A stretch of DNA of 64,000 nucleotides from Limisphaerales bacterium (GTDB lineage Bacteria > Verrucomicrobiota > Verrucomicrobiia > Limisphaerales > JAYPXF01), in contig JBLFYM010000006.1 of NCBI GenBank assembly GCA_047608975.1, positions 5,029 through 69,028 on the forward strand, written 5' to 3'. The first letter of the stretch is position 1. Each line of letters begins with the position of its first letter. Under the pieces are notes generated by a model. It ran no database searches. It saw only the letters and a program-made list of their open reading frames with translations, and had not been told where the DNA came from. The position numbers and the translations under genes are program-made. This document shows, one piece after another, positions 12,676-42,779 of the stretch.

Positions 12676-12812
12676 GAGCAGTGGCCATTCGGAGTTAAAG
12701 AAACAGGCGAGGGTGTTTAGATACGAAAACTGAATTGGTGGCAAAAATATGCGGCTCAGCGGCTACGATTCTGGAAACAGTCCGGAACGAGGCGTTCCTA
12801 TTCCAATTTTCG

Positions 12813-15800
12813 TCATTCAGCATGAGCCAAGTATGCTTTCTCTCTGCGGTATCTGAAGGGGTAGCTCTTGATGATAGCGGTGGCAAGGGCGGAGAACCGG
12901 TGGTCGTTGTCCTTCAATTCAGCGACCGTTTTCCGGATGACGCTTTCGTCGTAGTATTCGAGGCTGCGTCCCAACGCGAACCCGAGGCTCTTTTGTGCCA
13001 TCTGATGCAGGAAGGCATCCCGCTTCTCGCTCATCAAATAGCGCTTCAAGCCGGCCAGCCCGTTCAGCTGCGGGCCGCCCTTCACATCTCCCATTGCGTC
13101 CACCGCTTGGCCGTTCGCTTCCTTGCTCCGGAAACGGCCGATGGCGTCGTAGTTTTCCAGGGTGAATCCAAAGGGATCGATGCGTTCATGGCAGACCGCG
13201 CAATTCGGATTGGTGCTGTGCGAAGCCAGACGTTCCTTCGTGGTCAGCGTCTTGTTGCTCAATTTGGATTCATCGATTTCGACGCCATCGGGTGGCGGCG
13301 GGACTTTGCCTCCGATCAAGGATTCCAGAATCCATTGACCTCGGATCACCGGGCTAGTTCGGTTGGGATAGGAGGTCGCCACCAGCACGCTGCCCATGGC
13401 CGGAAATCCACCGCGTTGATTCGTGGTCAGCTCGACCTTCCGCAGGTGGTCTCCCTTGATGTCGGGAATGCCGTAGTGTCCGGCCAAGGTCTCGTTGAGG
13501 AAGGCCGTTTTCGAATCCAGAATCTCCAACACGCTTTTGTCCTGCTTGACGAGGTCATCAAAGGTCATCACCGCTTCTTGATACATGGCCGCTTCGAGTT
13601 TTGCGGTGTAGTCGGGGAATAGTTTTGTATCCGGTTTCTTCTCGGAAAGGATCTTCCGAAAGCCAAGCCATTGACTGGCAAATTCTTGGGCCAGGGAAAT
13701 TGACTTCGAATCCTTGAGCATGCGGCGAACCTGTTCCTCCAAAACACTTTCGTCCTGCAGACGGCCTTCTTTCGCCAACTTCATCAGGGTTTCATCCGGC
13801 ATGGAACTCCAGAGGAAATACGACATCCGGCTGGCCATGGCGTAGTCGCCGACTTGCTGGGCGCTCTGCCCGGGGGCCTCATCTTCAATGCGGAACAGGA
13901 ACTGCGGACGGGTCAGCAGGCTTTGGATTGTTCGTTGCGCCGCCTTCTGAAAATCGTCGGTCTCGCCAAGCGCTTTGTCGTAGATGCCGGCGATGACCCG
14001 GGCATCTGTCGTACTGACCGGACGGCGAGACGCTTTGCCCGCAAACGCCAACAGGGAATCTTTCATCCGTCCGTCCATTTCCTGCTGGAAGGCTTCGGCG
14101 GCTTTTCTCAGATTGTTCCACTGTTTCTGTTCGGATTCCGAAAGTTTTTCTGGAGCCCCCCGGTCTCGCGCCGCCAGATCCGAGAGTCGCGGATGTTCCT
14201 CCTTCTTCGTTTTCAACAGCTGCCCAAACTGCTTCTTCGTCACGAAAGTGAAGAAGTCTTTGATCGGCGTCCGCTTGGCGTATTCGACTTCCTGCCGGAT
14301 GGCTTCGAGGCGCGTCTGGCCTGCCTTGTCCAGCGACACATCGATCATCTCCTTCGCGCCGGCGCTTTTTCCGTAGCCGACGAGCGATGAGAAGATGACC
14401 CACCACTTCTTCGCCTCTTCAATGGCGAAGTGGCCCGGCCCTCGATAGAAATGGGAGTGGGTGTGCTTGCCCTTGGGAAACGGGATCGATTCATCCTTCG
14501 CGTAGACTTGGACTGATCCCTTGTCGGTGGCCGACTTCTCCATGCCCATCGTGGCCTTGAACGACTTCGCACCGGCCGGGAGTTTGAAGGAAAGCAAGGC
14601 CGGAGCTTCGATGTAGAAGCCGCGTTTAATTTCCTTGGACGCGGAACTTTCGAACTGTTTGCCGTCGGGAAACTTGTCCCGATGGATTGCGCCTTCGCCC
14701 TGTTTTTCGATCAGTTCGAGATCGCCGAGATAAGCCACACTGCCATCCGTCAAGGTCACCTTGGGATCGTGGAGGACAATGCGGTCGAATTCGTTCCCGT
14801 CGTCCATGTCGCCCACGCTGAGATACAAGATCTTGGCATTCTCCCGGATGCTCGTTTTCACCTCCAGCCCGGGCACACCCGTGTAACGGGTGTGGGAAAC
14901 GGCCAGTTGGACCTTGCCTGCGAAGTCGTCGTGAAACGCCTGCAGCTCTTCATCCGTGACACTCTCCCGACGGGCTTGGAGTTCCAACCAAGGATCGAGG
15001 ACCCAATGGCCGTAATGACTCTTCCAACGACTGGTCTTGATATCCTTGTCCGCATTGATGAAGGCGATGGCCCAGCGATAGAAAACGCCCGGCATCAGTT
15101 TCTTCTCAATCGCGAGGTCATAGATCTCCTTGTGACTGGCCTCAGGATTCTCCAAGGCCAGTTTCATGGCGGGCATGAGGTAGGGCTTGTACTGCGTGCG
15201 GGGATTGTATTTCGGAAGCTTGTCGAAGAAGTCGTTGTAGAAATTGGTCAACTTGCGCTCAGCCCGAACGAGGTAGGCTCGCGGCGGATAAGTCGGTGAG
15301 AGATCGGCGGTGAAATTGATGCCTCGCGTGTAGCTCACGTCGGCATGACGCGAAATGTCCCGGGCCGCCTTGAAGTATTTCTCCACCATGAGTGGAAGCA
15401 TCGTCATCGCCTCGGCGTTATTGTCGAAGCCCTCCCCTCCTCCGCCGTCGCCAGAGAAATACCGCGCCGGTCTCAGATTGACCCCGGTCAGGTCGCGGAT
15501 CGTGTTGTCGTATTCGGCCTTGTTCAGGCGGCGCAGGTTGTGTTTCCCCGGATCCTTGACGGACTCGTAATCAAATTCATCGATCGTTTTCCGGATCCAC
15601 GAGGTCAGCTTGGCAATTTCCGCCGCGGTCGGACGGATTTTCCGATCCTCCGGAGGCATCACACCCGTTTCGACCTGATCGATGACGCTGAACCATTTCT
15701 GCAGGTGGACCAGAATATCTTTCTCGGTCTGGTAGGCTTCAAAATTCAGGCCGGCTTTGCGCTTCTTGTTCCCGTGGCAATCCGTGCAATGCTTTCTGAG

Positions 15801-25938: not shown

Positions 25939-28077
25939 CTAGAACGTAAGCGTTGCGCCAATTCCGACACTTCGCCCCGGAAGTGGAGCGACGTCTTTTG
26001 CCACCGAGACATGGTTGCGGGCGTCGGCGTTCAGAAGATTGTTTCCCTTGATGAACAGACTTAGGTCTCGATTCCCCCATTTGCGGGTGTGAGTGAGGTC
26101 GGCGTTGAGCAGGGTGTAAGATTTGGTCGGCGTTTCGAAATTTCGCTGGAGGCGATTCTGCGCGAACGAGTGACGGACCTCGGCTCCGAGTTTCCACGGG
26201 CCTTGGCTGTATTCGACGCGATTGCCCACGCGGACCGGAGGGAAACGCGGGATGGCTGTGTCTTGATTGAGATCGGTCGCGCGGACGGAGTCAGCGCTGA
26301 AGTGGTAGGTGAGGCTGGAGTTGGTGGAAGCGGGGAGGAGTTCGTATTCGAGCTGCAATTCGGCACCTTCGAATTTTGCGCGGGTCTGGATGTAGCGAAA
26401 GATGGGCAGACCGTTGACTTCCCAACCGGGACCGATGCCAGTGACGAAGATGTAGTTGTCGAAGTTGTAGGTAAAGTAGGTGACCGAACCGGTCAGTCGG
26501 CCTTTGGTTTTGCGTAAGCTGAATTCGTAGTTCTCGGAACGTTCAAGATCGATTCCGCCCTCGGCTGGTTTGAGGAAGGGAATGCGGTACCAGGCGCCGA
26601 CTTCAAAGGTGCCGGCGGCCAGGTGGGGGCCATTGGAGAAAAGCTCGGTGGAGTTTGGCGGACGGCGGGCGCGAGACCAATTGGCCGCGATTTCAAATCC
26701 GTCCCAGAGCTGCAGTTCGAGTCCGGCGGAAAGGCTGTGCGAATCGTAGGTAAGTCGTTCTTGCCGGATGTTGGCGAAGTTGACGTCCATGATCTGGGTT
26801 TCGAAGCGCCCACCTGCCTGAAGTTTGAGCGGGCCGAGTTCGAGGTTCTCGATGACGTATCCGGCGAAGTTTTCAGTCTGGCTGTCGGGCGTGTTCACTT
26901 CAGGGCCGCGACTGCCGAAGTCGATTGTTCTCCACGTTCCGCCGATGCGTCCGCTGAGTCCACGAAATCGTGCGTGCGTGAGGTCGAGTTTGGTTTCGGT
27001 GGTGGTGTTGCCGAAGTTGTTGTCCAACGTGGCAGCAGCTTCACTTTCTGCGTGTTGGTAGTCGGACCAAGTCCCGCGAAGTTCAATTTCGTCAATCGCA
27101 GCGATCGGGTTGTAGAGTTCGAATTCTCCGTTAAAGCGGATCTGATCGAGGTCAACGGCAACGTCGTTGATCTGCCGATTGACACCGGGACCGAAGTGGC
27201 TGTGAGCGTCCGCATGAAAAGGCACGCCGTATTCGGATTCGATACGGGTGATCGATGCGCCAACACGCCCCTTCTCCCAGAACGTTCCGATGCCACCAGA
27301 TGCGGTCAGTCGATCCGTCCAGGTGTTGGGTAGGGTTCCTTCAGGGTTGGTTGTGGGGTCGTGTGGGTTGAGACGTGCTTTGCCGGGGATATCGTAGTCT
27401 TGGGAAATGCTGCGAAGGACATTGAATTGCAGTGCGAGGTTTTCATTTCCGAGAGTAAGCGCAGTCACTCCGGTTCGTTCCCGAGAAGCGCTTTCCCAGC
27501 GAAGGGATGAGACGCCTTCGTACGACTTGGCCGGTGCGCGTCGTGGAATGCTCTTCGATTTGACGTTCACGACCCCTCCGATGGCAGATCCGCCGAACTC
27601 CAAAGTGGAGGGACCACGCAGGACTTCAATCTCTTCGGAGAGCAGGCTCTCCGCGGTGACTGCGTGGTCGGGGCTGGTCTGAGAAATATCGCCGGTGCCG
27701 ACGCCATCAGAAAGCATCCGTACGCGGTCACCGCTGAACCCGCGAATGACGGGGCGGCTAGATCCCGGACCAAAGGAGGATGAAGTGATGCCCGGTTCCC
27801 ACATCAGTGTGTCGCCAAGCGATGGAGCAATCTTGAGCTGCAAATCAGCGGCATCGAGAAGCGTACGGGATTGAATGATGCGCGTGTCGATGAGGGGAGT
27901 GCTCTCATCCGCCCGGACAACGATTTCATCCAGGATAAAAAGGTTGGTTGATACGGGAACGGTTTCCTGAGCGAACGAGTGAGTGACGCCAAACAAAATT
28001 GCAAACGCAACAATGCAACGGGGCAACGAGTAGTTGCTCAACGGGCGGTATTCATGCTCACGATTCTGTGTATGCAA
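25939..28077 (-). CDS. TonB-dependent receptor, ZnuD-like
   Basis: Signal peptide, plug motifs SSRPVIRG, PDHAV, IEVLRGP, His loop YGVPFHADAHSH, C-terminal Phe (GATLTF). Confidence 0.9.
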   Translation of the reverse strand: MHTQNREHEYRPLSNYSLPRCIVAFAILFGVTHSFAQETVPVSTNLFILDEIVVRADESTPLIDTRIIQSRTLLDAADLQLKIAPSLGDTLMWEPGITSSSFGPGSSRPVIRGFSGDRVRMLSDGVGTGDISQTSPDHAVTAESLLSEEIEVLRGPSTLEFGGSAIGGVVNVKSKSIPRRAPAKSYEGVSSLRWESASRERTGVTALTLGNENLALQFNVLRSISQDYDIPGKARLNPHDPTTNPEGTLPNTWTDRLTASGGIGTFWEKGRVGASITRIESEYGVPFHADAHSHFGPGVNRQINDVAVDLDQIRFNGEFELYNPIAAIDEIELRGTWSDYQHAESEAAATLDNNFGNTTTETKLDLTHARFRGLSGRIGGTWRTIDFGSRGPEVNTPDSQTENFAGYVIENLELGPLKLQAGGRFETQIMDVNFANIRQERLTYDSHSLSAGLELQLWDGFEIAANWSRARRPPNSTELFSNGPHLAAGTFEVGAWYRIPFLKPAEGGIDLERSENYEFSLRKTKGRLTGSVTYFTYNFDNYIFVTGIGPGWEVNGLPIFRYIQTRAKFEGAELQLEYELLPASTNSSLTYHFSADSVRATDLNQDTAIPRFPPVRVGNRVEYSQGPWKLGAEVRHSFAQNRLQRNFETPTKSYTLLNADLTHTRKWGNRDLSLFIKGNNLLNADARNHVSVAKDVAPLPGRSVGIGATLTF

Positions 28078-28183
28078 AGCGTCGTTCCCAGCTTGGCGGC
28101 GCGAACGATGCCAGCCAAAATCATTCGTTCAAGCCGCGATCTCAATTTCAGCGGATGCGCACCATAATACTGGGGATTTAGTA

Positions 28184-28200
28184 TTGCAAATGGTTTGCAA
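28184..28200. promoter_or_regulatory. Palindromic operator (Fur/Zur-type), copy 1
   Basis: (A)TTGCAAA-TGG-TTTGCAA(T) perfect 8-3-8 palindrome between divergent genes; overlaps TTGCAA-N16-TATGTT (+) and TTGCAA-N17-TATGGT (-) promoter-like arrangements. Confidence 0.85.
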
Positions 28201-28225
28201 TTCGATATGTTGCCCCACCTTTGTG

Positions 28226-29887
28226 ATGAACGGATCGAAGTTGTATTCTGGGTTTCTCGCCTTGCTTGTCGCCGGCTTGGTATTCTCCGCACCAAGCGGC
28301 CGTAGTGCGGAATTGATCACCAATGGGCACTACGACCTCAACGTGACCTTCTCCAACAACGTTGGCTGGGCGTTCAATTGGTACAACTTCGACAATGAAG
28401 CCCGAATCCCAAGCCCATTGATCGACATAGCCGTTATGGAGGCGGCTCGCACAACCGTGCCAGGCAACGGATTTTCGGCGCTCGGAGCAAGCCCGGGCGA
28501 TCCCGTCTGGATCCTGCCGCAAACCCAGACTCCGGATATCACTTTCCTCGGTTATCGCATGGCCGATGCGGATCCGAACGAGTTTTTTGCGCTTTTTGGC
28601 ACACCGATCGTTGGCCTGAAGGTTACCGAAGTTCGTGGTAGTGGCCCGGATCGTGGAGGGTTCTTTTCAGGCTATCAGACTGGCTTGGGCACTCCGACTT
28701 TCCAATACACTTCGGCGGACGGGTTCGACAACAACGACGCGATTGCCGTTCCGTTGGGGGCACATGCGCACTACAGTTGGGCCTTCACCAAGCCTGGAGA
28801 GTATCAGGTGAATTTTGAGGCGGAAGGCGATCATCGGACGGGTGGCGCAACCAATGGCTCGGGCGCATTCACTTTCTTCGTTCCCGGCGGAATGACCAAT
28901 CTCCACATCCTCGACGGCGACCATGCCTCTTTCCTCTTCGGATTCACCAGCAATTCAGTGGAGTTGAACGTGGGCGGCGAAGTCGAAGGCATTCCCAACT
29001 CCTATGACAACAAGATCCGTTCACCGGAAGAAACGTTGTTTTACGACAAAGCTTCTGACATTCAGCTCACCGTCCCAGCCGCCGGATTCGATTTCCTTGG
29101 CAACCCGGGAGAAACCATCTGGGCCTTCCCGCAGAGCTATAATCCCAACACAATCTTTCTTGGTCTCCGTTCAGAGGGCATCACCAATGGCGCAGTGATG
29201 AACGATGCGGTGGAAATGCGACTGATTGACGTGGATGGTCCCACCAACGGCAACTTCAGCTTCTTCCAAGTCGATGCGTTCGGCGCTGCGAATCTGTTTA
29301 TGGACTCCGGCGACGGAGTGGATCCCAACGTGGACAAACACGTCTTCGGGGCCAACGGTCACGATCACTACTTCTGGGCCTTCACCAAGACCGGCCGCTA
29401 TCGCGTCTCGTTCCAACTTGCCGCCACGAACACCACCGGCACTCCCATCACGTCTCGGGTCTACGAAACCCAGTTCGGCATCGGCGCGCTTCCGGGATTC
29501 CACGATGACGATGGCAACGGCATCGACGATCATTGGGAAACCCGTCACGGCTTTACCACTCCGGCGGATCCCAATGCCGACCCGGACAACGACAACAAGA
29601 CCAACCTGAAGGAATATCTCTTCGACAGCGATCCGCAGACTTCGGACACAAACGCCCCCGTCTTCCGTATCATGAACTCCGCGAATTCGATTTCGATGGA
29701 GGTCAACACTGTGGAAGGCCGTCAATATCGCCTCATGTATTCCGATGATCTCACCACTTGGAAACCCGGCAGCGAAAAGATTCTTGGCCAGCGAGCACTG
29801 CTTCCCTTCCTCGATGACGGCAATGGTCTGATCCAGGGCCCACCCACCAATCGTTTCTATCGATTGGATATTTCTTCTCCACAGTAA
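28226..29887 (+). CDS. Secreted protein with two choice-of-anchor M (TIGR03769-like) domains, Asp-rich Ca-binding repeat and RFYRL tail
   Basis: NGHYDL...PVWILPQ...HAHYSWAFTKPGEY; second domain HDHYFWAFTKTGRY; DDDGNGIDD/DPDNDNKTN; ends NRFYRLDISSPQ. Confidence 0.85.
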   Translation: MNGSKLYSGFLALLVAGLVFSAPSGRSAELITNGHYDLNVTFSNNVGWAFNWYNFDNEARIPSPLIDIAVMEAARTTVPGNGFSALGASPGDPVWILPQTQTPDITFLGYRMADADPNEFFALFGTPIVGLKVTEVRGSGPDRGGFFSGYQTGLGTPTFQYTSADGFDNNDAIAVPLGAHAHYSWAFTKPGEYQVNFEAEGDHRTGGATNGSGAFTFFVPGGMTNLHILDGDHASFLFGFTSNSVELNVGGEVEGIPNSYDNKIRSPEETLFYDKASDIQLTVPAAGFDFLGNPGETIWAFPQSYNPNTIFLGLRSEGITNGAVMNDAVEMRLIDVDGPTNGNFSFFQVDAFGAANLFMDSGDGVDPNVDKHVFGANGHDHYFWAFTKTGRYRVSFQLAATNTTGTPITSRVYETQFGIGALPGFHDDDGNGIDDHWETRHGFTTPADPNADPDNDNKTNLKEYLFDSDPQTSDTNAPVFRIMNSANSISMEVNTVEGRQYRLMYSDDLTTWKPGSEKILGQRALLPFLDDGNGLIQGPPTNRFYRLDISSPQ

Positions 29888-29948: not shown

Positions 29949-32483
29949 CTACGGATTGACACCCTGCACCGGACGCTTGGTGCCAGGCCAATGAAGCCAG
30001 TTGGCATTGGTGTCATTCATCAGGACCGGCGGAAGATTTGTGCTGAGAAGTGCTTCGAAGGCGGGCGCGCGTCGATCCTTTTGGAGAATGGCTTGTTCCC
30101 AATTGGAAAGCGTGAATCCCAGCCCCGCCATACGAACGTGATCAAAGCCGCCACTCGGTCGATCAAAGAGGCGGGGAAATTGTTGCATCCATTTCAACCA
30201 GAGACCGCCGATGTGATATTTGGCATTGGGTTTGCCGGTCAGACGTTCGCGGGCCGCATCGAGTTCGATCCAGAGGTTGTCCAAGGTGTTCAGCGGCGTT
30301 TCCTTTTTGGCTTCGTATCGCCCGAAGTAGAGCATGGCGATGCCTTCGCGGTGGCGCATGCTGGGGTCTGCAATCTGGTTGTGAATGCGGACTTGTGAGC
30401 AGCGTTGGGCGACGACGTTCCAATCCAAATCAGAATCCTTGAAGCCCACGAGAGCGAGACCAGGATGACGGGTCTTGAAAGTGAGACGGAAGAGATGCGT
30501 CGTTGGGAAGGCTTCCTTGAAGGTGTTGGCGATGACGGTGAATTGATCGGCGGTGAGCTGATACATCGGCAGCCATTGGCAGAAAATCCCGCCCGGTCGC
30601 AAAGCGTCGCGAACAGACGCAAAGTGTTCACGGGAATAGAGCCGTCCGACGCCTGCGCCCCACGGCAGGAAGAGATCTGCCTCGATGACGTCAAAGCTCT
30701 CCCGACAGGCGGCGAAGTAGGTGCGACCGTCTTCGTTCAAAACGCGGGCGTGCGAAACGTTGGCGACGTCATGATTGATCTCGGCGAAGTGTTCAGTGGC
30801 CGCATCAATCACAGATTCGGCGATCTCGATGGAGACAATCTCCTCGACTGAATCGTGAAGCACTGCCGCGCCGGGTGTCATCCCAGTCGCGTGCCCAATG
30901 AAACCAGCGCTCTTGGGAGCGGGATGCAAGAGCAGCGGCAGGTGGGCTTGACGTTCCTGCATATATTTGGCCCGCGAACTTCCCAAGACGTACTGGTTGG
31001 ACATCATGATCGCGCGCCCCATACCTTCGTGCTCGATCACGGCAAGATGCCCTTCGCGACCGTTCTTCTCTTCCAGGAGTTTGAAGCCCATGTTCGCATT
31101 CACGTGTGGAATGTTTGGCAACTTCCCGAATAGCAAACCGGCAACCAGGACAAAAGAAACAGCAGTTACCCCAATGGATAAGGCGCTTCGCGAGACCGAC
31201 CTCCAGAGGAGAAAGCCAACGGCAAATACCACGTAAACGAGCCCTACAACGCCAAGCGACTGGTAGACCCCGAGCTTGGGGAGCAACCAGCGATAGGTGA
31301 TCTCCGCACCAAGCAATCCGCCCAGTCCATTTACGGCCAGCAACCAGCCCAGTTGTCTGCCCTTGGCATCGTTGCCCTCCTCGCTCAACCATTTCAATGC
31401 GGCAGGAAACAACATGCCAGCGAAGAAGATGGCTGGGCCAATGGTGGCGAGCGCGACGCCGGCGAACTTCAACATGAACATCAATACGCTGGGGTTGGAT
31501 ACGTAGGGATGATGTCGAGTGACGATCGCCATGTAGATCACCGGTGCAAGCGCGAGGCAGAGTCCAGCTATAGCGGCAAAGACGACGATCGCATGCGAAA
31601 GCTTCCCGCAAAGCTTCGTGAGCGGTCCGATTAGCCAAGCCGAAACGGCAAGGAGCAGAATCACCGCGACCAGCAAGGCGGTCGGGGTATGGAAAGACAT
31701 GGTCGCAACCAAGGTATACATCTTGAAGGCCGCCACTTCGGCTGCCATTACCCCGGCGCCTGAAAAGCCCGCGATGACGAGAATGCCCGGATCCAATCGT
31801 CGGTTCTCGGACTCGTTCGATTCGCGTGCGAGTTGTTTCTCGATGCGTTGGGTCTCGCGCAAATGCAGTTGCCAAAACGCAAAACCAAGCCCGGCGTTCA
31901 TAGTCATCATGGCGATCATGGACGCGGAAGCACCGGCAGCGGGAATGATGAAGCCGGCCAGAATCAGCAGTCCCACCACCCCGCCAACGGTATTGAAGGC
32001 GTAGAGATTGATGCCCTGCCGTCCCAGTTCGAATCCACCCGCCATGACCCCGCGAACGATGACTGGAAAACCGAAGCCCATGAGCGTGGCTGGGGGCACG
32101 ATCATCAGTGCAGACAGGAGGAACTTGATCAGGCCGCCAGGCCAGGCAACAAGCAAGTCCGGGCCTACCCGTGGCCAGATCCAATCGGTGAGTTGCGGCA
32201 GGAATAGAATGGGCAGCGTGAGAAGAACGATGCCGACTTCCAGGCGAGCCAATACAAGGAAAGGACGTTTGATGCGATGCACGTAGACGGCGGCCAGAGC
32301 GGAACCGAGCCCCAGCCCAAAGAAGAAGCAACTGAACACCCGCACGCTGGATTCCGCGCTCGCTCCCAAAAGATCCGTCAACCGGCGCGTCCACAATAAT
32401 TGATGTCCCAATGCGGCGGCACCGCTGAGCAGCAGCAACAGCAGAGCGAGGCGGTAGACTTGTTGAGAACGTTTGTCACCCAT
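29949..32483 (-). CDS. Fused multi-TM / spermidine-synthase-like SAM-dependent transferase
   Basis: LSGAAALGHQLLWTR, LYAFNTVG, about 13 TM segments, FIGHATG, IEIAESV, EDGR, DVIEAD, YSREHF. Confidence 0.85.
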   Translation of the reverse strand: MGDKRSQQVYRLALLLLLLSGAAALGHQLLWTRRLTDLLGASAESSVRVFSCFFFGLGLGSALAAVYVHRIKRPFLVLARLEVGIVLLTLPILFLPQLTDWIWPRVGPDLLVAWPGGLIKFLLSALMIVPPATLMGFGFPVIVRGVMAGGFELGRQGINLYAFNTVGGVVGLLILAGFIIPAAGASASMIAMMTMNAGLGFAFWQLHLRETQRIEKQLARESNESENRRLDPGILVIAGFSGAGVMAAEVAAFKMYTLVATMSFHTPTALLVAVILLLAVSAWLIGPLTKLCGKLSHAIVVFAAIAGLCLALAPVIYMAIVTRHHPYVSNPSVLMFMLKFAGVALATIGPAIFFAGMLFPAALKWLSEEGNDAKGRQLGWLLAVNGLGGLLGAEITYRWLLPKLGVYQSLGVVGLVYVVFAVGFLLWRSVSRSALSIGVTAVSFVLVAGLLFGKLPNIPHVNANMGFKLLEEKNGREGHLAVIEHEGMGRAIMMSNQYVLGSSRAKYMQERQAHLPLLLHPAPKSAGFIGHATGMTPGAAVLHDSVEEIVSIEIAESVIDAATEHFAEINHDVANVSHARVLNEDGRTYFAACRESFDVIEADLFLPWGAGVGRLYSREHFASVRDALRPGGIFCQWLPMYQLTADQFTVIANTFKEAFPTTHLFRLTFKTRHPGLALVGFKDSDLDWNVVAQRCSQVRIHNQIADPSMRHREGIAMLYFGRYEAKKETPLNTLDNLWIELDAARERLTGKPNAKYHIGGLWLKWMQQFPRLFDRPSGGFDHVRMAGLGFTLSNWEQAILQKDRRAPAFEALLSTNLPPVLMNDTNANWLHWPGTKRPVQGVNP

Positions 32484-32592
32484 GACACGAAAACGCGGAG
32501 ACCGTAGTCCCCGCACAAAAACGAGGCGAGCCCTGACCGGCACACATTTACGGTCAGAGCCCGCCTATCCCGTCACCCGACGGGAAATTTGA

Positions 32593-35562
32593 CTAGGGTT
32601 GCGGTTGTTGAATTCCGATCCGGAAGAAGCGTGATCCAATCGTCGCTGGGTCACGGTTCACATCCAAGAGCCGGAGGATATTACCATCAGGAACTGCCTG
32701 TGCTCCGTTGACCGGCGCGAACACCGTCGGCGCATTGATTGCCTCGCTGGATTCCAGCATGAGATTCAATCCGCCGGTCGGGCCTTCCACCTTCACCCCC
32801 GCTACGAAGACTTGCGTCACACGCAAGACCGGAACGTTCGGACTCGTCGCAGCCGGACCGGTTGAACCGTTGACAACAAACCGATAATTCCCTGGTACAG
32901 CGCCGGTGGCGCTCAGGGTCGCGCCGCTTGCCCCTGGAATATCCACGCCGTCCAGTTGCCACTGGTAAGTCAATCCATCTCCCGTCACTGCACCGGCGGG
33001 AATGCTCAACATCAGTGAGCCGTCGGGCGCCAACACAGCACCCGGCAGAGCAGACGTAAATGTCGCGACGTTAACAGTCGCGGGCACGGGTGGAGCCTGA
33101 ACCAAGAATGTCAGAGTGCCCGAACCACTCACGGCTCCGAGCGTGTTGTGCATGCCGGCAGCTGTCAGGTTGAGCTGGTAGTTACCCGGTGCCGAGAAAC
33201 CCAGATTGAAGTGCTCATGATGCCCAGCTTCGACGGTGAAGTTGTCTGCGGCCGAAACCCCATCGGCACTCGACATGCGGAAGGTGGGCGTCAGACCAGC
33301 TTGGTAAACCGAGAAGTGACCCGGCCCACTCACACTGTTCAATGTCCAGGCAATGTCTCCGTTCCAATCACCGGCCGTCAATTCTTCCGCAGCCCAACCG
33401 AGAAACACTGCTCCGGCCGTTTCCGAAGCATTCTCTGTCTGAGGTAGAACAAAGACGGCTGCGCCAGAGCTTGCGCCAGTCGGATCCCACTCCGAGCCAC
33501 TCGGTCGTGCGATCAAGGTCGACGCCGGCACCACGACATGAAGGTCCTCTGCCTCGAACTCATTCTGTTGCGGCGCGCCGCCCGTAATCGTCGTCATGCC
33601 ACCGGTGAATTCGGTGTGGAAACCGATTTCTAACTGGTTGCCATCCAACTCAAGATTCACGTCGCCATGTCCACCGGTCAGTTGGAACGGATCCGCTGCC
33701 ACATCGAAGGTCAAGGTGCTGGTCGAGCTCACGACACCCGCAGTGTTGTGCGTGCCTGCCACAGCTACCTGAACCTGATACTTGCCCGGTTGTGAAAACC
33801 CGAGATTGAAATGCTCATGATGACCGGCTTCAACCGTGAAGACATCTGCTGCACTGACTCCATCGGATGACGCCATGTTAAAAGTCGGTGTCAGCCCAGA
33901 TTTGTAAACGGAGAAAGCCCCCGGTCCGGTTACTCCGGTCAAGGTCCAGTTAAGGTCGCCGGTCCAGTCTCCCGCCATCAATTCCTCAGCGGCCCATCCC
34001 AGCCGAACCACGCCGGCGGCTTCGGATTCCGATTCCGTCTGCGGCATTATGTTCATGCGCTGCCCTGCAGGAATACCGATCGGGTCGAACTCCGCTCCCG
34101 CGGGGCGCGTCGTAGTCGTACCCGTCGGAACGTTGATGATGATGTCAGACGCGGCGAACTCGTTTTGCTGCGGCGCACCTCCCGTGATTTCAGTATGTCC
34201 GCCGGTGAACTCAGTATGGAATCCGACTTCCAATTCGGAACCATCGAACTCCAGGTTCACATCGGCATGTCCGCCAGTAAGTCGAAAGGGGGTCGCTGCC
34301 ACATCGAAGGTAAGAGTACTGGTCCCATTGACCGCACCAGCCGTGTTGTGCGTTCCCGCCACATTCAACTGAATCTGGTAAGTGCCGGGTGCGGAGAAGC
34401 CGAGATTGAAGTGCTCGTGATGACCGGCCTCTATCGAGAAAGAATCACCAGCGGTCAAGCCATCGGCCGAAGCCATATGGAAGTTCGGCGTGAGCCCTGA
34501 TTCATAAACCGAAAATGTTCCCGGACCGGTCACGCCGCTCAAAGTCCAGTTGAGGTCACCTGACCAATCGGCGGCAGTCAGTTCTTCAGCGGCCCAGCCC
34601 AAACGAACCACACCGGCGGTTTCGGACGCCTCTTCAGTTTGGGGCATCACGTTGATGCGTTGGCCGCCCGGAACACCGATTGGATCAAACCCGGCGTCTG
34701 TCGGCCGCGTCGTGGTCGTGCCAGTCGGCACATTGATGATGATGTCTGCTGCTTCGAATTCGTTCTGCTGCGGCGCGCCTCCCGAGATTTCGGTCATACC
34801 ACCCGTGAACTCTGTGTGGAAGCCGACTTCCAATTCTGCCCCATCGAATTCGAGATTCACATCGGCATGTCCACCGTTGATCCGGAACGGTGTCGCAGCC
34901 ACGTCGAACGTCAGTGTCCCAGTCGTGTTGACTGCACCAGCCGTGTTGTGCGTTCCCGAAACGTTCAATTGAACCTGGTAGGTTCCCGGTGTAGAGAAGC
35001 CGAGATTGAAATGCTCATGATGACCGGCTTCGATCGTGAAAGCATCTGCAGCGCTGATGCCGTCTGAGGAAGCCATTCTGAATGTCGGTGTCAGGCCGGA
35101 TTCATAAACCGAGAACGTTCCCGGGCCGGTCACGCCAGTCAAAGTCCAAGTGAGGTCGCCTGTCCAATCGGCGGCTGTCAACTCTTCCGCAGCCCACCCG
35201 AGACGAACCACACCAGCAACTTCAGATGCCTCTTCAGTTTGCGGCATCACGTTGATGCGCTGACCACCCGGAACACCAATCGCATCGAACTCTGTTACAG
35301 CGGGACGAGCCGTGGTGGTGCCGATTGGCACGTTCACAGTCAGGTCAGCGGTTTCAAACTCGTTCTGCTGAGGTGCGCCACCGGTGATGGTAGTCATACC
35401 ACCGGTGAATTCGGTATGGAAACCGATCTCCAGGTTTGCACCATCGAATTCTAGGTTTACATCGGCATGCCCGCCGGTAAGGAGATACGGCTGGGCACTT
35501 GCGGTGCCGACGACGGACAAAATCGTCAGCAAACAAATCATAATTGTCGGTCTATTTTTCAT
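32593..35562 (-). CDS. Large surface protein with four tandem choice-of-anchor M domains, Ig-like domain and RFFRI tail
   Basis: Signal peptide; 4x GGH(A/G)DVNLE...FHTEF...GHHEHFNLGFS.PG.Y; TYQWQLDGVDIPGA; ends SRFFRIGIQQPQP. Confidence 0.88.
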   Translation of the reverse strand: MKNRPTIMICLLTILSVVGTASAQPYLLTGGHADVNLEFDGANLEIGFHTEFTGGMTTITGGAPQQNEFETADLTVNVPIGTTTARPAVTEFDAIGVPGGQRINVMPQTEEASEVAGVVRLGWAAEELTAADWTGDLTWTLTGVTGPGTFSVYESGLTPTFRMASSDGISAADAFTIEAGHHEHFNLGFSTPGTYQVQLNVSGTHNTAGAVNTTGTLTFDVAATPFRINGGHADVNLEFDGAELEVGFHTEFTGGMTEISGGAPQQNEFEAADIIINVPTGTTTTRPTDAGFDPIGVPGGQRINVMPQTEEASETAGVVRLGWAAEELTAADWSGDLNWTLSGVTGPGTFSVYESGLTPNFHMASADGLTAGDSFSIEAGHHEHFNLGFSAPGTYQIQLNVAGTHNTAGAVNGTSTLTFDVAATPFRLTGGHADVNLEFDGSELEVGFHTEFTGGHTEITGGAPQQNEFAASDIIINVPTGTTTTRPAGAEFDPIGIPAGQRMNIMPQTESESEAAGVVRLGWAAEELMAGDWTGDLNWTLTGVTGPGAFSVYKSGLTPTFNMASSDGVSAADVFTVEAGHHEHFNLGFSQPGKYQVQVAVAGTHNTAGVVSSTSTLTFDVAADPFQLTGGHGDVNLELDGNQLEIGFHTEFTGGMTTITGGAPQQNEFEAEDLHVVVPASTLIARPSGSEWDPTGASSGAAVFVLPQTENASETAGAVFLGWAAEELTAGDWNGDIAWTLNSVSGPGHFSVYQAGLTPTFRMSSADGVSAADNFTVEAGHHEHFNLGFSAPGNYQLNLTAAGMHNTLGAVSGSGTLTFLVQAPPVPATVNVATFTSALPGAVLAPDGSLMLSIPAGAVTGDGLTYQWQLDGVDIPGASGATLSATGAVPGNYRFVVNGSTGPAATSPNVPVLRVTQVFVAGVKVEGPTGGLNLMLESSEAINAPTVFAPVNGAQAVPDGNILRLLDVNRDPATIGSRFFRIGIQQPQP
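33069..35490 (-). repeat. Four intragenic tandem units with 600-bp period
   Basis: Anchor atcggcatg/gtcgccatg at 35461, 34861, 34261, 33661; outer boundaries approximate. Confidence 0.9.
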
Positions 35563-35697
35563 TTCAGGGTACGCCAACACAGTTGGCCAAAGGTTTTTCA
35601 AGGTCAGATTAAGCGACGCAGTCCGCCGCCAAGAGTGAGTGTGGGAAGGCGCGATCCGACAAGGTGTCGAATCCCGTTTGCGGGAGGACGAGGAAAT

Positions 35698-36066
35698 CTA
35701 GGAGACAGGAGGGGCGCGCCCGGGGATGGCAGAAGAAGACAATCCGGAAGCAACCTGGCCGTGTTCGAGCAGTGTCACTTCCGATATCACAACGAACTGA
35801 AGTGGGACGAAACCGATTGCCACCGGAACATCCGCGCACCCGGCAGCAAGAAGCTCGATCAGGCACTGATGACCATCGGGCAATCCGGATCCTTGCTCAT
35901 GCCCGGTTTCGGCTTGGCAGCCTGAGGAGCAACAATATGACGCCCCTTCACAATGCAGTTCGGCATGAAGCCCCGGCAGATGAACAAGCGTACCAGCCGC
36001 CAAAACGCTGAATGCCAAAGCGGTGGCAAGCAGGAGTTTGAGTGCGTGTTGAGTGCGCGTTACCAT
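35698..36066 (-). CDS. DUF2946-like His/Cys leader protein ending in RAPP
   Basis: Signal-like N-terminus, HLPGLHAELHC..YCC..GC...GH...GHQC, C-terminal PGRAPPVS-stop; ATG at 36066. Confidence 0.75.
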   Translation of the reverse strand: MVTRTQHALKLLLATALAFSVLAAGTLVHLPGLHAELHCEGASYCCSSGCQAETGHEQGSGLPDGHQCLIELLAAGCADVPVAIGFVPLQFVVISEVTLLEHGQVASGLSSSAIPGRAPPVS

Positions 36067-36083
36067 TTGCAAGCGATATGCAA
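36067..36083. promoter_or_regulatory. Palindromic operator, copy 2
   Basis: TTGCAAG-CGA-TATGCAA immediately upstream of the DUF2946 start. Confidence 0.65.
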
Positions 36084-36173
36084 TAAGAGAGTAAGGAAAG
36101 TGGTTCGTCAAGGATTTTGGTGGTGAACAGAATACAACCTGGCCGATCGAATTGAAGTAAGACGGATTTATTA

Positions 36174-36190
36174 TTGCAAACCTATCGCAA
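36174..36190. promoter_or_regulatory. Palindromic operator, copy 3
   Basis: (A)TTGCAAA-CCT-ATCGCAA(T) upstream of the Fur-family gene. Confidence 0.75.
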
Positions 36191-36226
36191 TTATTACGGG
36201 AAGGGACATAGCTTTGCCGCGTTCTT

Positions 36227-36700
36227 ATGGGAACGCAGAATTCAGTTCAGCGATCGGTTTATGAGCGTTGTGAATACGTCTCCAACGTACTTCAACAAGC
36301 GGGCAATCGGCTGACCAAGTCCCGCCGTGAGGCCATTCGTGTGCTGTGCTCAGCAAGCGCGCCCATGTCGATTCAGGATCTGCACGAAGAGGTGGTACGC
36401 AGGGGTTCCAGCGATCTCAGCACCCAATACCGTCTGATGAACGAGCTCCAACGTCTGGATCTCGTAAAGGCGGTCGAAGTTCCCGGCCAGTCCATGCCCG
36501 GCTACGTCGTGCACCTGCCGGGGGAAAGCAATGATCTGCTGGTGTGCGTTCGCTGTGGCCATTATGTGTGGCTAGAGGAGGCTGCTGAAATTCGGAAGCT
36601 GGAGGAACGAGTTGCCAAAAAAATGAAATTTGGAGAGCTCTCACACGAACTGCGCCTCAACGGGGTTTGCGAACCGTGTCAGGAAACTTCCGATCCGTAA
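36227..36700 (+). CDS. Fur-family transcriptional regulator (Zur-like, atypical)
   Basis: RLTKSRR, LSTQYRLMNELQRLDLV HTH, CVRC and CEPC structural Zn site, HELRLNG. Confidence 0.88.
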   Translation: MGTQNSVQRSVYERCEYVSNVLQQAGNRLTKSRREAIRVLCSASAPMSIQDLHEEVVRRGSSDLSTQYRLMNELQRLDLVKAVEVPGQSMPGYVVHLPGESNDLLVCVRCGHYVWLEEAAEIRKLEERVAKKMKFGELSHELRLNGVCEPCQETSDP

Positions 36701-39161: not shown

Positions 39162-39198
39162 AAGCGATTCAGAGCCCTAAAGTTTTTCTGATCTTTTA

Positions 39199-39215
39199 CT
39201 GCAAATCTATTGCAA
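39199..39215. promoter_or_regulatory. Palindromic operator, copy 4, overlapping a -35 (TTGCAA-N17-TAGCGT)
   Basis: (A)CTGCAAA-TCT-ATTGCAA(T); -10-like TAGCGT at 39233-39238. Confidence 0.8.
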
Positions 39216-39247
39216 TAACGGAATCAGCCCGCTAGCGTCAACCGCAA

Positions 39248-39264
39248 ATGCAAAAGGTTTGCAA
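39248..39264. promoter_or_regulatory. Palindromic operator, copy 5
   Basis: (A)ATGCAAA-AGG-TTTGCAA(T) just downstream of the predicted transcription start. Confidence 0.8.
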
Positions 39265-40531
39265 TACTGTCTCTGAGTCGGATTCCACACCCGAGGTGGT
39301 TTCGGTGGACTCTGTGGCTGAACAGCGAGCCAACATCCACCGCATGACCCCGGTCACCGTTCTCTCCGGATTTCTGGGAGCGGGCAAGACGACCCTCCTG
39401 AACCAGTTGTTAAAACATGCCGGCGAACGAAAAATTGCGGTCATTGTGAATGACCTGGGCGAGGTCAATATCGACGGTGCCCTCCTGCGAGAAGGGGGGA
39501 GCGGATCTGGCGAAGCGGTGATGGAAATCACTGACGGATGCTTTTGCTGCAACATCCAAGAAGATCTGGTGCACGGATTGCTGGATCTGGCAGGTCGCGA
39601 GCCCCAGTTCGATCACATCATCGTTGAAGCCTCCGGCGTGGGAGACCCGGAAGGAATTGTAGTTGCGGTCGATCGCGCCGCGGTTTTCATGCCCCGGCTG
39701 CGCGAGATCGTTGACATTCAATCGCTGGTCACGGTCATAAATTCACCGCTCCTCTTGGAAGAATGGCGACGCATGCAGAGCGCGGACAAGTTGGTGAGTG
39801 CCCATCTATCCCCGAACATCGAGCCCATCTTCGAACTGATGGTGCAACAAATCGAATGCGCAGATCTGTTACTCGCCAACAAGGACGACCGTCTGAGCGA
39901 AACCGACCGCGAAGATCTGCGCACGCTCGTCGGTTCGATGAACGAACGTGCCGAACTGAAATTCATCCGCGAAGGCGAACTCGCGGTGGAAGACGTGCTC
40001 GATCAACAACGTTTTGAATTGCAGACAACAATTTGCGGCGCTCGCTGGATGTCCGATCTGCGCGCGGAAAAAGAGACAACTAAGCCGTCCATTTCCATCT
40101 CCCTAGATCGGCCGTCCAGTTCTCGGGACCAAAGAGGAGCGGCCTACAATCGACATGGGCTCTCATCGTTTGTGTATCGAGCCCGACTGCCCTTCCGTGC
40201 GGCCGCGTTCACGAAGTTGATCTCGCCCCCGCTCCCCGGAGTCATCCGCGTGAAAGGATTCTTTTGGGTCGATGACCACGCTCGCGATGTCAACCTGCTC
40301 TCCATCTCCGGAAACATCCTGCGCCGAAACATTCTCGGCCGTTGGTGGATTGACCGCGTTCAGGCCGAGGAATGCGACCGTTCGGATGTGCCTGACCTAA
40401 TCGAGGCACATTGGCAAGAGCCACACGGAGATCGTCGCCAGGAACTCGTCTTCATCGGCACGGAACTTGAGGAAGAACAACTCCGCAAACAATTGGACGA
40501 TTGCCTCGCCGACTACTTCTGGGGTGCTTGA
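39248..40531 (+). CDS. COG0523 / CobW-family G3E metallochaperone GTPase (start may be ATG 39344)
   Basis: LSGFLGAGKTT, VNDLG, GCFCC (CxCC), VEASG, ANKDD, CobW_C RVKGFFW and RQELVFIG. Confidence 0.95.
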   Translation: MQKVCNTVSESDSTPEVVSVDSVAEQRANIHRMTPVTVLSGFLGAGKTTLLNQLLKHAGERKIAVIVNDLGEVNIDGALLREGGSGSGEAVMEITDGCFCCNIQEDLVHGLLDLAGREPQFDHIIVEASGVGDPEGIVVAVDRAAVFMPRLREIVDIQSLVTVINSPLLLEEWRRMQSADKLVSAHLSPNIEPIFELMVQQIECADLLLANKDDRLSETDREDLRTLVGSMNERAELKFIREGELAVEDVLDQQRFELQTTICGARWMSDLRAEKETTKPSISISLDRPSSSRDQRGAAYNRHGLSSFVYRARLPFRAAAFTKLISPPLPGVIRVKGFFWVDDHARDVNLLSISGNILRRNILGRWWIDRVQAEECDRSDVPDLIEAHWQEPHGDRRQELVFIGTELEEEQLRKQLDDCLADYFWGA

Positions 40532-40549
40532 ACTGACGACCACGAATCC

Positions 40550-41149
40550 ATGAATCCTGAGCCTCAATCCACTCAATCCAGCTCGGGCGCAACGATTGCG
40601 CTGGCGCTGATCACTTCCGCTTTGCTCGTGCTGTTTCTTTGGAACCTGATAGGCAAGCCCGGACTCCCGGTGAGCCCGCCTGACTATGGCAACCTGCCCC
40701 TGGAAGATGGCAAAGGTCAGCGGATCAACCTCACTGACTATCAGGGCCCCATCATGTTGCACTTCTTCACTACCTGGTGTGACCAATGTGAAACGATGGC
40801 ACCGATGCTCACCGCCACGAGCAAAGCCATGTCGAACGACGTTCAGATCGTCGGTGTGTCATTGGACTTGATTCCGGATTTTCAGTTGGGCGAGGCCAAA
40901 CTTGAACCCGGCCCGCGCACAGTAGAAGTGAATCAATTCGTGAAACAGAACGGCGTGGATTATCCGATTCTATTTGATCGCGACGGCAAATGCGCTGACG
41001 TGCTGGACGGGTATCAAGTCCCTGTTCACGTGGTGTTCGATTCGAACATGAACATGCTTCGACGTTTCACCGGCAAGCGAAGCGAAGAAAGCCTACGAGC
41101 TATTCTACGTGCTTGTGTCGAAGAAGACAGGAATCGGCAAGGGCTATGA
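40550..41149 (+). CDS. Membrane-anchored TlpA/thioredoxin-fold protein
   Basis: N-terminal TM, LHFFTTWCDQC (CxxC), YQVP cis-Pro loop. Confidence 0.85.
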   Translation: MNPEPQSTQSSSGATIALALITSALLVLFLWNLIGKPGLPVSPPDYGNLPLEDGKGQRINLTDYQGPIMLHFFTTWCDQCETMAPMLTATSKAMSNDVQIVGVSLDLIPDFQLGEAKLEPGPRTVEVNQFVKQNGVDYPILFDRDGKCADVLDGYQVPVHVVFDSNMNMLRRFTGKRSEESLRAILRACVEEDRNRQGL

Positions 41150-42288
41150 CCATGGACGAACAACCTGCAAAACCTAGATCCCGGGCATTCCGCATTCGCG
41201 TATCCATTCTCCTGCTGATTGGGCTTGTGGCGCTTACCCAACTTGGACGATTAAATCAGTACGCCGTCACCGAAGGCATCCTGCGATCCCATAGCCCGGA
41301 CCCTGAGATTCTGCATCAACTTCTTGGCGACGCACCAAATCCTGGCCCGCTCATAGCCCGTATCTGGGAGACGGAGAAACTCCCTCATCGCTGGGAGATT
41401 ATCAATTACCTCAACCGCAATCTTGGAGCTCGACCGGAGCTCGTGCCGATCATTGGCAACCTTGTTTTGGAGGCTGCCAATGATCCCGATGTGACCCTGC
41501 GCCTCACCGCCTTGAACTTGCTTCGCGTACTCGATCACCCGGAATGGCAAGGCATTGCTCAAGCGGCCCTGAATGATCCGGATCCAGTGGTAAACGACAT
41601 CGCCCGCGCGGTACTGAAAGACGTCGACAGCGAAATCGAGGTCCCAGTGAAACAGTATCCACACGTGAATCAGGTTCGTGGTTCGCAGTTTGACCATCTC
41701 GGCTTCAACGACTTCGCTCACCAGCCGTACGCGCTCTCTCAGTTTGAGGGACGACCGATCCTCCTACACTTCTTTGCCACCTGGTCGCCAGAGTGTACTA
41801 AGGAAATTTCTGACTTGCTCGAACTCCGGAATATTGCCCCCTCCGAATTGATTATCTTAGGTGTGAATATTGATGGCGTTCCCGGCATTCGCCATGATCA
41901 CTGCGAGACCGACTGCGAGACCGACTGCGAGACCGACTGCGAGACCGACTGCGATCACGAGGAGGAGTGCGAACACGACCACGGGTCAGCCACTCTCTCC
42001 AATATTTTCAAGACCGTCGAACGACACGTCATCATCAACGAATACAATTATCCAATCGTGTTCGATACCAACGGCTTGGCCACCGCCCAACTTGAAGGCA
42101 GCGAACTTCCCGTGCACGTCCTCCTCGACTCCGATCATCACCTGCTTCGTCGCTATGCAGGAACACGCAGCGCCCGGATTCACGACCACATCCTCAGGAC
42201 GCTGCTTGGAATCGAAGGAACTCCCGCGACAACAAATGAAATGAAACCCGTCCACACCGCATCTCCAGCAAAAAGCCAAGAACCATGA
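41146..42288 (+). CDS. HEAT-repeat plus TlpA-like (SxxC) protein with His/Cys-rich insert
   Basis: DPDVTLRLTALN/DPDPVVNDIA repeats, LHFFATWSPEC, HDHCETDCETDCETDCETDCDHEEECEHDH. Confidence 0.8.
   Translation: MTMDEQPAKPRSRAFRIRVSILLLIGLVALTQLGRLNQYAVTEGILRSHSPDPEILHQLLGDAPNPGPLIARIWETEKLPHRWEIINYLNRNLGARPELVPIIGNLVLEAANDPDVTLRLTALNLLRVLDHPEWQGIAQAALNDPDPVVNDIARAVLKDVDSEIEVPVKQYPHVNQVRGSQFDHLGFNDFAHQPYALSQFEGRPILLHFFATWSPECTKEISDLLELRNIAPSELIILGVNIDGVPGIRHDHCETDCETDCETDCETDCDHEEECEHDHGSATLSNIFKTVERHVIINEYNYPIVFDTNGLATAQLEGSELPVHVLLDSDHHLLRRYAGTRSARIHDHILRTLLGIEGTPATTNEMKPVHTASPAKSQEP
41902..41954 (+). repeat. 12-bp tandem repeat tgcgagaccgac x4 plus partial (encodes CETD)
   Basis: Four exact units 41902-41949 read directly. 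Confidence 0.97.
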
Positions 42289-42779
42289 ACCTGGAACCGA
42301 CACTGCAAGCCAATGGAACCGATCCTGGCGAGCCACCCACCAGCGCCCCCCGCTCGCGTTGGGACAGGCTTGGCTTCTTCGCATCATCGCTGTGCGCAGT
42401 TCATTGCGTGTGCATGCCGTGGCTGCTCCTGGCTTTGCCATTGCTGGCCGGCACTTGGCTGGTCGATCGCGAAATCGAACGTGGTTTCGTCGTTGCGTCC
42501 ATTCTGCTGGCGACTGCATGCACCGTTGGAGGTTGCCGGACGCATGGGAAATGGTGGCTATTGGGATTGCTCGGAGCAGGTGCCACGACGCTGATAGGAG
42601 CACACGTGACCGCACCTCCCACCTGTTGTTCCGAACACCTGAGTTGGCCAAATGCGCTGGGTGCAGCGTTCGGTGGCACTCTCCTCGCCGCTACCCACTT
42701 CTTCAATCTCCGGCTGCAACGCGGGTGGGCTCCGCCATCCGGCAATCGTTGCGTGGGTACTGAATGTGGATGCGACTAA
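42285..42779 (+). CDS. merC: MerC-family membrane protein
   Basis: WDRLGFFASSLCAVHCVCMP motif, 4 TM, HFFN end. Confidence 0.75.
   Translation: MNLEPTLQANGTDPGEPPTSAPRSRWDRLGFFASSLCAVHCVCMPWLLLALPLLAGTWLVDREIERGFVVASILLATACTVGGCRTHGKWWLLGLLGAGATTLIGAHVTAPPTCCSEHLSWPNALGAAFGGTLLAATHFFNLRLQRGWAPPSGNRCVGTECGCD

Follow-up and report, generated by a model that had tools for sequence, protein, structure and literature searches.

What would a seawater bacterium do with a protein made of four histidine-bearing domains in a row, and which metal would these domains bind? The question is raised by a 64,000-nucleotide stretch of the genome of a Limisphaerales bacterium (GenBank assembly GCA_047608975.1, contig JBLFYM010000006.1, positions 5,029 to 69,028; hereafter the window), in which a gene on the minus strand (32593..35562) encodes an exported array of four choice-of-anchor M (CoA-M) domains. 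Zinc is scarce in surface seawater, and zinc acquisition by abundant heterotrophs such as Verrucomicrobia is poorly known. On balance, the protein probably binds zinc in each of its domains when zinc is scarce and feeds the uptake route encoded in the same locus.

The Array Gene and Its Product

An earlier description made from the letters alone (the sequence-only reading) had placed the gene at exactly these coordinates, with four units of about 200 amino acids (aa), their motifs and anchor positions, no indels between them, and six shared histidines. All of this was reproduced. The features of the gene are as follows (coordinates of the window; aa numbers of the array protein, P0001).

32593..35562, minus strand: 4x CoA-M protein gene, 989 aa (stop codon 32593-32595; ATG 35560-35562)
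35491..35562, minus strand: Sec-type signal peptide MKNRPTIMICLLTILSVVGTASA/QP, cut probably after ASA, no lipobox (from reading of the sequence and orthologue N-termini)
34888..35487, minus strand: CoA-M unit 1, aa 39-238; clusters with the orthologues' first units
34288..34887, minus strand: CoA-M unit 2, aa 239-438; modeled with AlphaFold2, mostly beta-strand
33688..34287, minus strand: CoA-M unit 3, aa 439-638; clusters with the orthologues' penultimate units
33088..33687, minus strand: CoA-M unit 4, aa 639-838; the most divergent of the four, in the clade of all orthologues' last units
32824..33054, minus strand: one Ig-like domain (YQWQLDGVDIPGA...GNYRFVV), aa about 850-926; moderate AlphaFold2 confidence
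32596..32823, minus strand: C-terminal module of about 76 aa, ending RFFRIGIQQPQP; no family assigned
32596-32640 and 29840-29887: RF[FY]R[ILV]-type endings of the two CoA-M genes of the locus (genome-wide ending motif)

The open reading frame (ORF) spans 32593..35601 (minus strand), a frame of 1002 aa. The ATG at 35562 is the likely start because the resulting N-terminus matches those of the orthologues. The units, 200 aa each, align without gaps, and a repeat search of the DNA gave a spacing of 600 nt between them. GGH[AG]D occurs at aa 43, 243, 443, and 643 (low coordinates 35461, 34861, 34261, and 33661), FHTEF at 61 + 200n, GHHEH at 193 + 200n, and [TM]HN at 217 + 200n. The units contain 6, 7, 7, and 8 histidines, respectively, and six His positions are common to all. 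Tandem Repeats Finder, whose longest period is 500, reported nothing in the gene. The mature protein is very acidic (isoelectric point 4.3), with zero Cys and few Met.

The sequence-only reading had the four units followed by an "Ig-like stalk". One Ig-like domain is indeed present, and its residues resemble the YQW..DG..I.GAT...G.Y.V repeats of another protein that has Pfam Ig_2/Ig_3 matches; the last 76 or so residues form a separate module ending in RFFRI. A Pfam search of the tail gave no match, and AlphaFold2, given the last 164 aa and nine close orthologues, produced a poor model (predicted local distance difference test, pLDDT, 49). Both CoA-M proteins share their type of ending, ...R[FY][FY]R[ILV]xxx(P), with about 20 large ORFs of the genome (roughly 600-3,650 aa). 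Among the ORFs of the genome, RF[FY]R[ILV]-type endings were matched 29 times in the last 16 residues vs. 13 times in a control segment. The ending may belong to a C-terminal module, specific to the lineage, that serves in sorting or at the surface.

A Domain Family Linked to Zinc

The four units belong to the NCBIfam family NF038134 (choice_anch_M), with four matches (E 7e-101) and 335.8 bits in total against a cut-off of 55. In the genome search each unit scored about 91-98 bits and covered positions 2-184 of the 184-position profile. TIGR03769 (P_ac_wall_RPT, a 41-residue core in the HxH strand region) also matched, with 93.3 bits against a cut-off of 30.9 over four stretches, for example aa 595-634. 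TIGR03773 gave 235 bits against a cut-off of 190.3, reached only by summing four partial matches at profile positions of about 316-474. The transporter-associated surface protein architecture of this last model was rejected: the locus has no anchored-repeat ABC (ATP-binding cassette) genes (TIGR03770-03772), and the nearby ABC genes are of the ABC-2 type. Pfam offers no model for the domain, only weak Ig-like and other beta-sandwich matches.

In a search of 1.84 billion representative proteins, 1,414 clusters matched with E values of 0.001 or less. Among 163 proteins, namely the best 150 of the 1,414 representatives plus additional homologues, arrays of 1-9 domains are usual, and 18 of the proteins have four. 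The domain is carried by 12 of the 37 genera sampled in the same order (Limisphaerales).

Which residues define the family? Conservation was counted over 451 domains from 154 diverse representative proteins outside the close clade of the array gene. H7 is found in 71% of them (with Glu in another 15%), D9 in 86%, H157 in 89%, and H159 in 87%, vs. 33% for H24, 0% for H156, and 7% for H180. Within the clade, H7, H24, H156, H157, and H159 are invariant in 31 of 31 units and H180 is present in 30. The family core is H7-x-D9, then 147 aa, then H157-x-H159, and H24, H156, and H180 are clade-specific additions to it. Position 31 is His in 19 and Met in 12 of the 31 clade units (in unit 2, for example, it lies at 34795-34797) and sits in a loop inserted only in the clade (residues 27-38, FTGG[MH]T..GGAP). 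The sequence-only reading had pointed to different His motifs in the second CoA-M gene of the locus, as a hint that the two genes might represent two affinity classes. The difference is real, the second gene having GAHAHY and GHDHY, and only H7, D9, H157, and H159 are family-wide.

All four units have H7-[AG]-D9 and H157-E-H159 with 147 residues between them, that is, the motif HxD, about 150 aa, HxH that defines ZnuE, ZnuF, ZnuG, CmrA, and CmrA2 of Corynebacterium diphtheriae, where it occurs in 1-3 copies per protein (Peng, Lyman and Schmitt 2025, PMC12445094). These proteins are regulated by zinc and Zur (PMC12445094, PMC6711530) and show a thermal shift with zinc in nano differential scanning fluorimetry (PMC12445094). 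The motif has been tied to zinc binding and to growth under zinc limitation, with mutant phenotypes in zinc-limited medium, and His-to-Ala changes abolish the function of ZnuE and ZnuG (PMC12445094). AlphaFold predictions for ZnuE and ZnuG bring the four motif residues together in a single pocket that resembles the zinc site of ZnuA (PMC12445094). The authors liken the multi-motif proteins to streptococcal Pht proteins and propose that zinc is held at the surface; they also consider zinc storage (PMC12445094). Since the transporter adjacent to the C. diphtheriae proteins is named "anchored repeat ABC transporter" in the Zur-regulon paper (PMC6711530), these proteins are tied to the TIGR0377x models that match here. 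In Cutibacterium acnes, CoA-M genes shift expression together with the genes of ribosomal proteins L28 and S14 (PMC10045295).

The published link between HxD/HxH and zinc supports what the sequence-only reading had proposed, namely a multivalent array of His-bearing metal-binding domains in metal acquisition (PMC12445094). That interpretation is partly supported: it appears largely right, but it had already been published for the actinobacterial relatives.

An Operator-Like Palindrome in the Locus

The best evidence that the locus would answer to zinc is the genomic distribution of a 19-bp palindrome, ATTGCAAAnnnTTTGCAAT, present in five copies spread over all three divergent promoter regions of the locus.

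28183..28201: perfect operator-like palindrome ATTGCAAATGGTTTGCAAT, between the TonB-dependent receptor gene and the 2x CoA-M gene
36066..36084: palindrome copy TTTGCAAGCGATATGCAAT; it overlaps the start codon of the small ORF upstream of the array gene
36173..36191: palindrome copy ATTGCAAACCTATCGCAAT, ahead of the Fur-family gene
39198-39216 and 39247-39265: two operator-like copies, between the ABC ATPase gene and the zigA-like gene
Contig C5, 81840-81858 (3841-3859 of L004): TTTGCAAACCGTTTGCAAA, the sole strong copy outside the window, 47 bp upstream of a ZIP-family transporter gene

The 6.4-Mb genome has five 19-mers within two mismatches of the palindrome, four of them in the locus. When 19-mers with a TGCAA-N7-GCAAT core are also counted, the genome has six, and five are in the locus. 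The transporter gene behind the outside copy matches Pfam ZIP with 85 bits and is followed by a second Fur-family gene. Because the only strong copy outside the locus precedes this ZIP transporter/Fur-family operon, the palindrome is a candidate Zur-type operator. Contig C62 has a weaker operator-like site, with 3 mismatches, some 440 bp away from a ZnuA-type operon; we attribute this site to chance.

The Genomic Setting

The genes around the array are the following.

25939..28077, minus strand: ZnuD-like TonB-dependent receptor gene (coordinates of the full ORF; translation probably starts slightly downstream of 28077)
28226..29887, plus strand: second CoA-M gene; two-domain product with the motifs HAH and HDH and a tail ending in RFYRL
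29949..32543, minus strand: fused gene for a multi-transmembrane/spermidine-synthase-like (SpeE-like) protein, directly downstream of the array gene
35698..36066, minus strand: small Cys/His-rich ORF (HLPGLHAELHCEGASYCCSSGCQAETGHEQ...) immediately upstream of the array gene; N-terminus signal-like, last residues GRAPPVS
36227..36700, plus strand: divergent Fur-family regulator gene
39248..40531, plus strand: gene for a ZigA-like COG0523 metallochaperone GTPase
40550-42779: region following the zigA-like gene, with two genes for TlpA/ResA-like proteins of the thioredoxin fold and one for a membrane protein of the MerC family (PF03203, 69 bits)

The best NCBIfam match of the receptor is ZnuD (E 1e-87, 295 bits), vs. 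1e-13 and 51 bits for the copper receptor, and the best match of the COG0523 GTPase is ZigA (E 1e-85). The genome has five Fur-family genes. A place of the array in metal acquisition is also supported by the ZnuD-like, ZigA-like, and Fur-family genes and by the palindrome that they have in common.

Synteny is kept in both orthologous loci examined, whose arrays have 5 and 6 units, and an ORF of 120-130 aa stands at the position of the small ORF in the syntenic orthologous loci. Two of the three distant CoA-M loci carry cobW/COG0523: one (L005) has two cobW genes with znuABC, the other (L007) cobW and FUR. In L005, whose CoA-M protein is only about 35% identical, the array is followed by genes for a 408-aa membrane protein (12015-13241) and a 298-aa SpeE-like protein (13491-14387). 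The 408-aa protein is 43% identical to the N-terminal half of the 29949-32543 product and the 298-aa protein 53% identical to the C-terminal half. From these comparisons, the multi-transmembrane/SpeE-like gene appears to be a conserved partner of CoA-M arrays, fused here and split in L005, and better conserved than the CoA-M domains themselves.

Short contigs from seawater metatranscriptomes match both CoA-M genes, the receptor gene, and the small ORF upstream of the array, which weakly suggests expression in seawater.

Predicted Structure of the Domain

AlphaFold2 modeling of unit 2 from a 24-row alignment of units gave a confident, mostly beta-strand domain (pLDDT 93.7, predicted template modeling score 0.90). 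H7-A-D9 is on strand 2 of the model and H157-E-H159 on strand 14. From the strand register of the hairpin 7-14/19-25 assigned by DSSP, D9 would face H24 and H7 would face E26. As this register sets D9 opposite H24, we infer that at least H24 joins the core metal site.

Sequence and profile searches of the PDB found no relative of the domain, and Foldseek against the PDB returned only insignificant, generic beta-sandwich matches (best E 2.9e-3, TM-score 0.30), among them Ig-like, pilin, cadherin-like, cupredoxin, and CopC domains. In a mean-field direct coupling analysis of 346-435 domain sequences, gap artefacts and then subfamily signal dominated, and the expected hairpin contacts were not recovered. 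An enzymatic reading of the HxH/HxD motifs was set aside, since a 200-aa beta-sandwich is neither a TIM barrel nor a metallo-hydrolase fold.

An Ancient Array

Did the four units arise recently? The sequence-only reading had seen high DNA similarity between them and had suggested recent amplification or gene conversion. The exact 600-bp register would suit such an origin, as would the longest exact repeat of the gene, 32 nt at 33800-33831 and 35000-35031, exactly 1200 bp apart, which covers the EAGHHEHFNLG codons, including GHHEH, of units 3 and 1. Younger duplications are also known in relatives, where the extra copies are duplicated middle units, the youngest of them (u2-u4 of P0004) with a synonymous divergence (dS) of 0.46-0.69.

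The similarity itself turned out to be modest. Pairwise identity between units is 63-77% for DNA and 66-82% for protein, and only 37-53% at third codon positions. The nonsynonymous divergence (dN) of the pairs is 0.11-0.29 and dS ranges from 1.26 to saturated, with dN/dS of about 0.07-0.09. In a maximum likelihood tree of 35 units from nine orthologues, units sort by position and not by genome, with one clade of first units and one of last units. Unit 3 falls with the penultimate units and unit 2 pairs with a middle unit (unit 4) of the six-unit orthologue P0002, so that units 1, 3, and 4 group with units of the same position in other genomes and no unit of the array gene pairs with another unit of the same gene. 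No copy-number variants of the array were seen in three metagenomes. Since synonymous sites are saturated and units cluster by position across orthologues, the array is old; an origin of the units by recent amplification, or their upkeep by gene conversion, is extremely improbable and is refuted for this genome by the tree and the dS values.

The four copies are thus ancient, purifying selection maintains them, and their order is fixed; turnover is slow and confined to the middle, where relatives multiply units. Orthologues carry 2, 4, 5, or 6 units and nearly always keep the 200-aa register; six units, spaced at exactly 600 bp, occur in one genome of the same genus. In the related metagenome-assembled genomes G001 and G003, contigs end inside the arrays, so that copy numbers from short reads are minimum values.

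The array also exists in nature as assembled. The gene is present with 100% of the sampled words in many seawater and sea-ice metagenomes. In the three metagenomes mentioned above, Logan unitigs break only at the 32-nt repeat (33800 and 35000), which leaves three pieces of equal depth without joints. Given this equal depth, the absence of joints, and the full word coverage, the four units are present and are not an assembly artefact.

Proposed Role and Competing Explanations

In the mechanism that we propose, the array gene would be expressed under zinc scarcity, a Fur-family (Zur-like) repressor binding the ATTGCAAAnnnTTTGCAAT boxes when zinc is sufficient. The protein would be exported by the Sec route, with its four beta-sandwich domains, an Ig-like domain, and a C-terminal module typical of the lineage. 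Each domain would bind at least one Zn(II) ion at the HxD...HxH site, and hence at least four per chain. The zinc collected outside the cytoplasm would then be passed to the ZnuD-like TonB-dependent receptor and, after inner-membrane steps, to the ZigA-like GTPase.

Several observations weigh against this proposal. The local Fur-family protein matches its family weakly (44 bits), the receptor and the GTPase both score below the NCBIfam equivalog cut-offs, and a promoter scan found no sigma-70-like site. The metatranscriptome contigs are of low depth and could include DNA. The zinc function of the domain has been studied so far only in Gram-positive actinobacteria, and the host here is Gram-negative. 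Even in C. diphtheriae, triple His-to-Ala proteins still shifted with zinc in vitro, so that a binding role of the motif is unproven there as well (PMC12445094). Two further points, the signal peptide and position 31, lead to alternatives of their own.

The sequence-only reading had pictured a surface metal sponge. With no more than a signal peptide, however, the protein would stay in the periplasm, and no route of export across the outer membrane was identified: beyond the Sec signal peptide, no lipobox, PEP-CTERM, type IX secretion system, or autotransporter signal is recognisable in the array protein. The protein could then act much as ZinT or AztD do, as a zinc buffer, store, or chaperone on the way from the TonB-dependent receptor to an importer of the inner membrane, and storage is also among the roles considered in C. 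diphtheriae (PMC12445094). We regard this as rather unlikely: the family takes its name from the variety of its cell-surface anchors, the 20 or so large ORFs (to about 3,650 aa) with the RF[FY]R[ILV] ending suggest a common sorting or surface module, and an Ig-like spacer suits a protein held off a surface. His and Met are both metal ligands, and Met hints at copper. The alternation of the two at position 31, together with the TlpA-like thioredoxins and the MerC-like protein encoded downstream, makes another metal possible (copper, nickel, cobalt, or manganese), and cupredoxin and CopC domains are among the insignificant fold matches. The array protein, however, has no Cys and few Met, the receptor is far nearer to ZnuD than to the copper receptor, the GTPase is nearest to ZigA, and the palindrome recurs before a ZIP transporter gene. 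With znuABC and cobW in distant loci and relatives of the domain that are Zur-regulated and zinc-responsive (PMC12445094), service to a metal other than zinc seems improbable. Less probable still, in our view, are adhesive, structural, or enzymatic modules whose His/Asp site would hold only a structural ion, the zinc neighbourhood being incidental. Such modules would account for fold matches limited to generic Ig-like, pilin, and cadherin-like sandwiches and for the fusion of other family members to cadherin, Calx-beta, and FG-GAP domains, but not for the recurrence of COG0523, Fur, ZnuA, or TonB-dependent receptor neighbours in distant lineages, the operator-like palindrome common to the genes of the locus, or the published mutant phenotypes under zinc limitation (PMC12445094).

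Zinc binding in every domain and delivery to the uptake route of the locus is therefore the reading that we retain. A more specific version of it can be put forward only tentatively, and we lean against it. The HxD/HxH site of the clade would have been enlarged, by the three His, a conserved Glu, and the His/Met loop, to a site of higher capacity or for two ions. The 4-6 domains on their Ig-like stalk would form a surface zinc antenna that loads the ZnuD-like receptor directly and depends on the multi-transmembrane/SpeE-like partner for anchoring or modification. If true, such an antenna would be the first protein-based zinc-capture partner of a TonB-dependent receptor.

Relationships With Known Systems

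The closest studied relatives are the ZnuE/F/G, CmrA, and CmrA2 proteins of C. diphtheriae, of the same family (TIGR03769/03772/03773 "anchored repeat" models) and with the same motif. Like the array protein, they are exported and linked to genes of zinc regulation and uptake, and they are proposed to hold zinc extracellularly. In contrast to their 1-3 copies of the motif, there are four here; the host is Gram-negative and the partner is a ZnuD-like TonB-dependent receptor, not a ZnuABC binding protein. As judged from the sequence, there is no sortase or transmembrane anchor but an Ig-like domain with the RFFRI tail. The domains here also have three extra invariant His and the His/Met position, and the units are linkerless, at exactly 200 aa. 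Compared with NF038134, TIGR03769, and TIGR03773 in general, the clade adds the 27-38 loop and the histidines of HHEH, FHTEF, and THN, even if all four units match NF038134 end to end above the cut-offs.

Streptococcal PhtA/B/D/E with AdcAII are zinc-regulated, exported proteins with serial His zinc sites, thought to feed a high-affinity importer. The working idea would be the same here, without homology: the Pht motif is HxxHxH, in a different fold and a Gram-positive host, whereas the motif here is HHEH, and the Pfam histidine-triad domain has no match in the array protein. In Neisseria and Acinetobacter, ZnuD acts with ZigA under Zur. The best matches here are the same two proteins and a Fur-family regulator is present, but the sub-equivalog scores set the locus apart from these zinc piracy systems. 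We know of no CoA-M partner protein in the ZnuD-type systems of Neisseria and Acinetobacter.

The locus suggests that the zinc-binding domain is also used by marine Gram-negative bacteria, in arrays of 2-6 copies and with a TonB-dependent receptor. It is an informative but expected extension of the 2025 C. diphtheriae finding and not a new invention. If confirmed, it would point to a general function for the choice-of-anchor M family, with its 1,400 or so clusters at 50% identity, and would offer a simple system, with one vs. four domains and core vs. extended His, for the tuning of metal capture by repeats and ligands.

Further Features of the Locus

The second CoA-M gene shows peculiarities of its own. 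Its domain 2 has DGDHAS instead of GH.D, so that the Asp after the His is missing, while GHDH is kept. After its domains, the protein has a thrombospondin-type-3-like acidic stretch (DDDGNGIDD...DPDNDNK). Genes for tetratricopeptide repeat (TPR) and ABC-2 proteins also belong to the locus, and a DUF3450 gene and an ExbB-like gene lie beyond the MerC-like gene. The orthologous locus L001 has most genes of the region from TlpA to ExbB, arranged somewhat differently.

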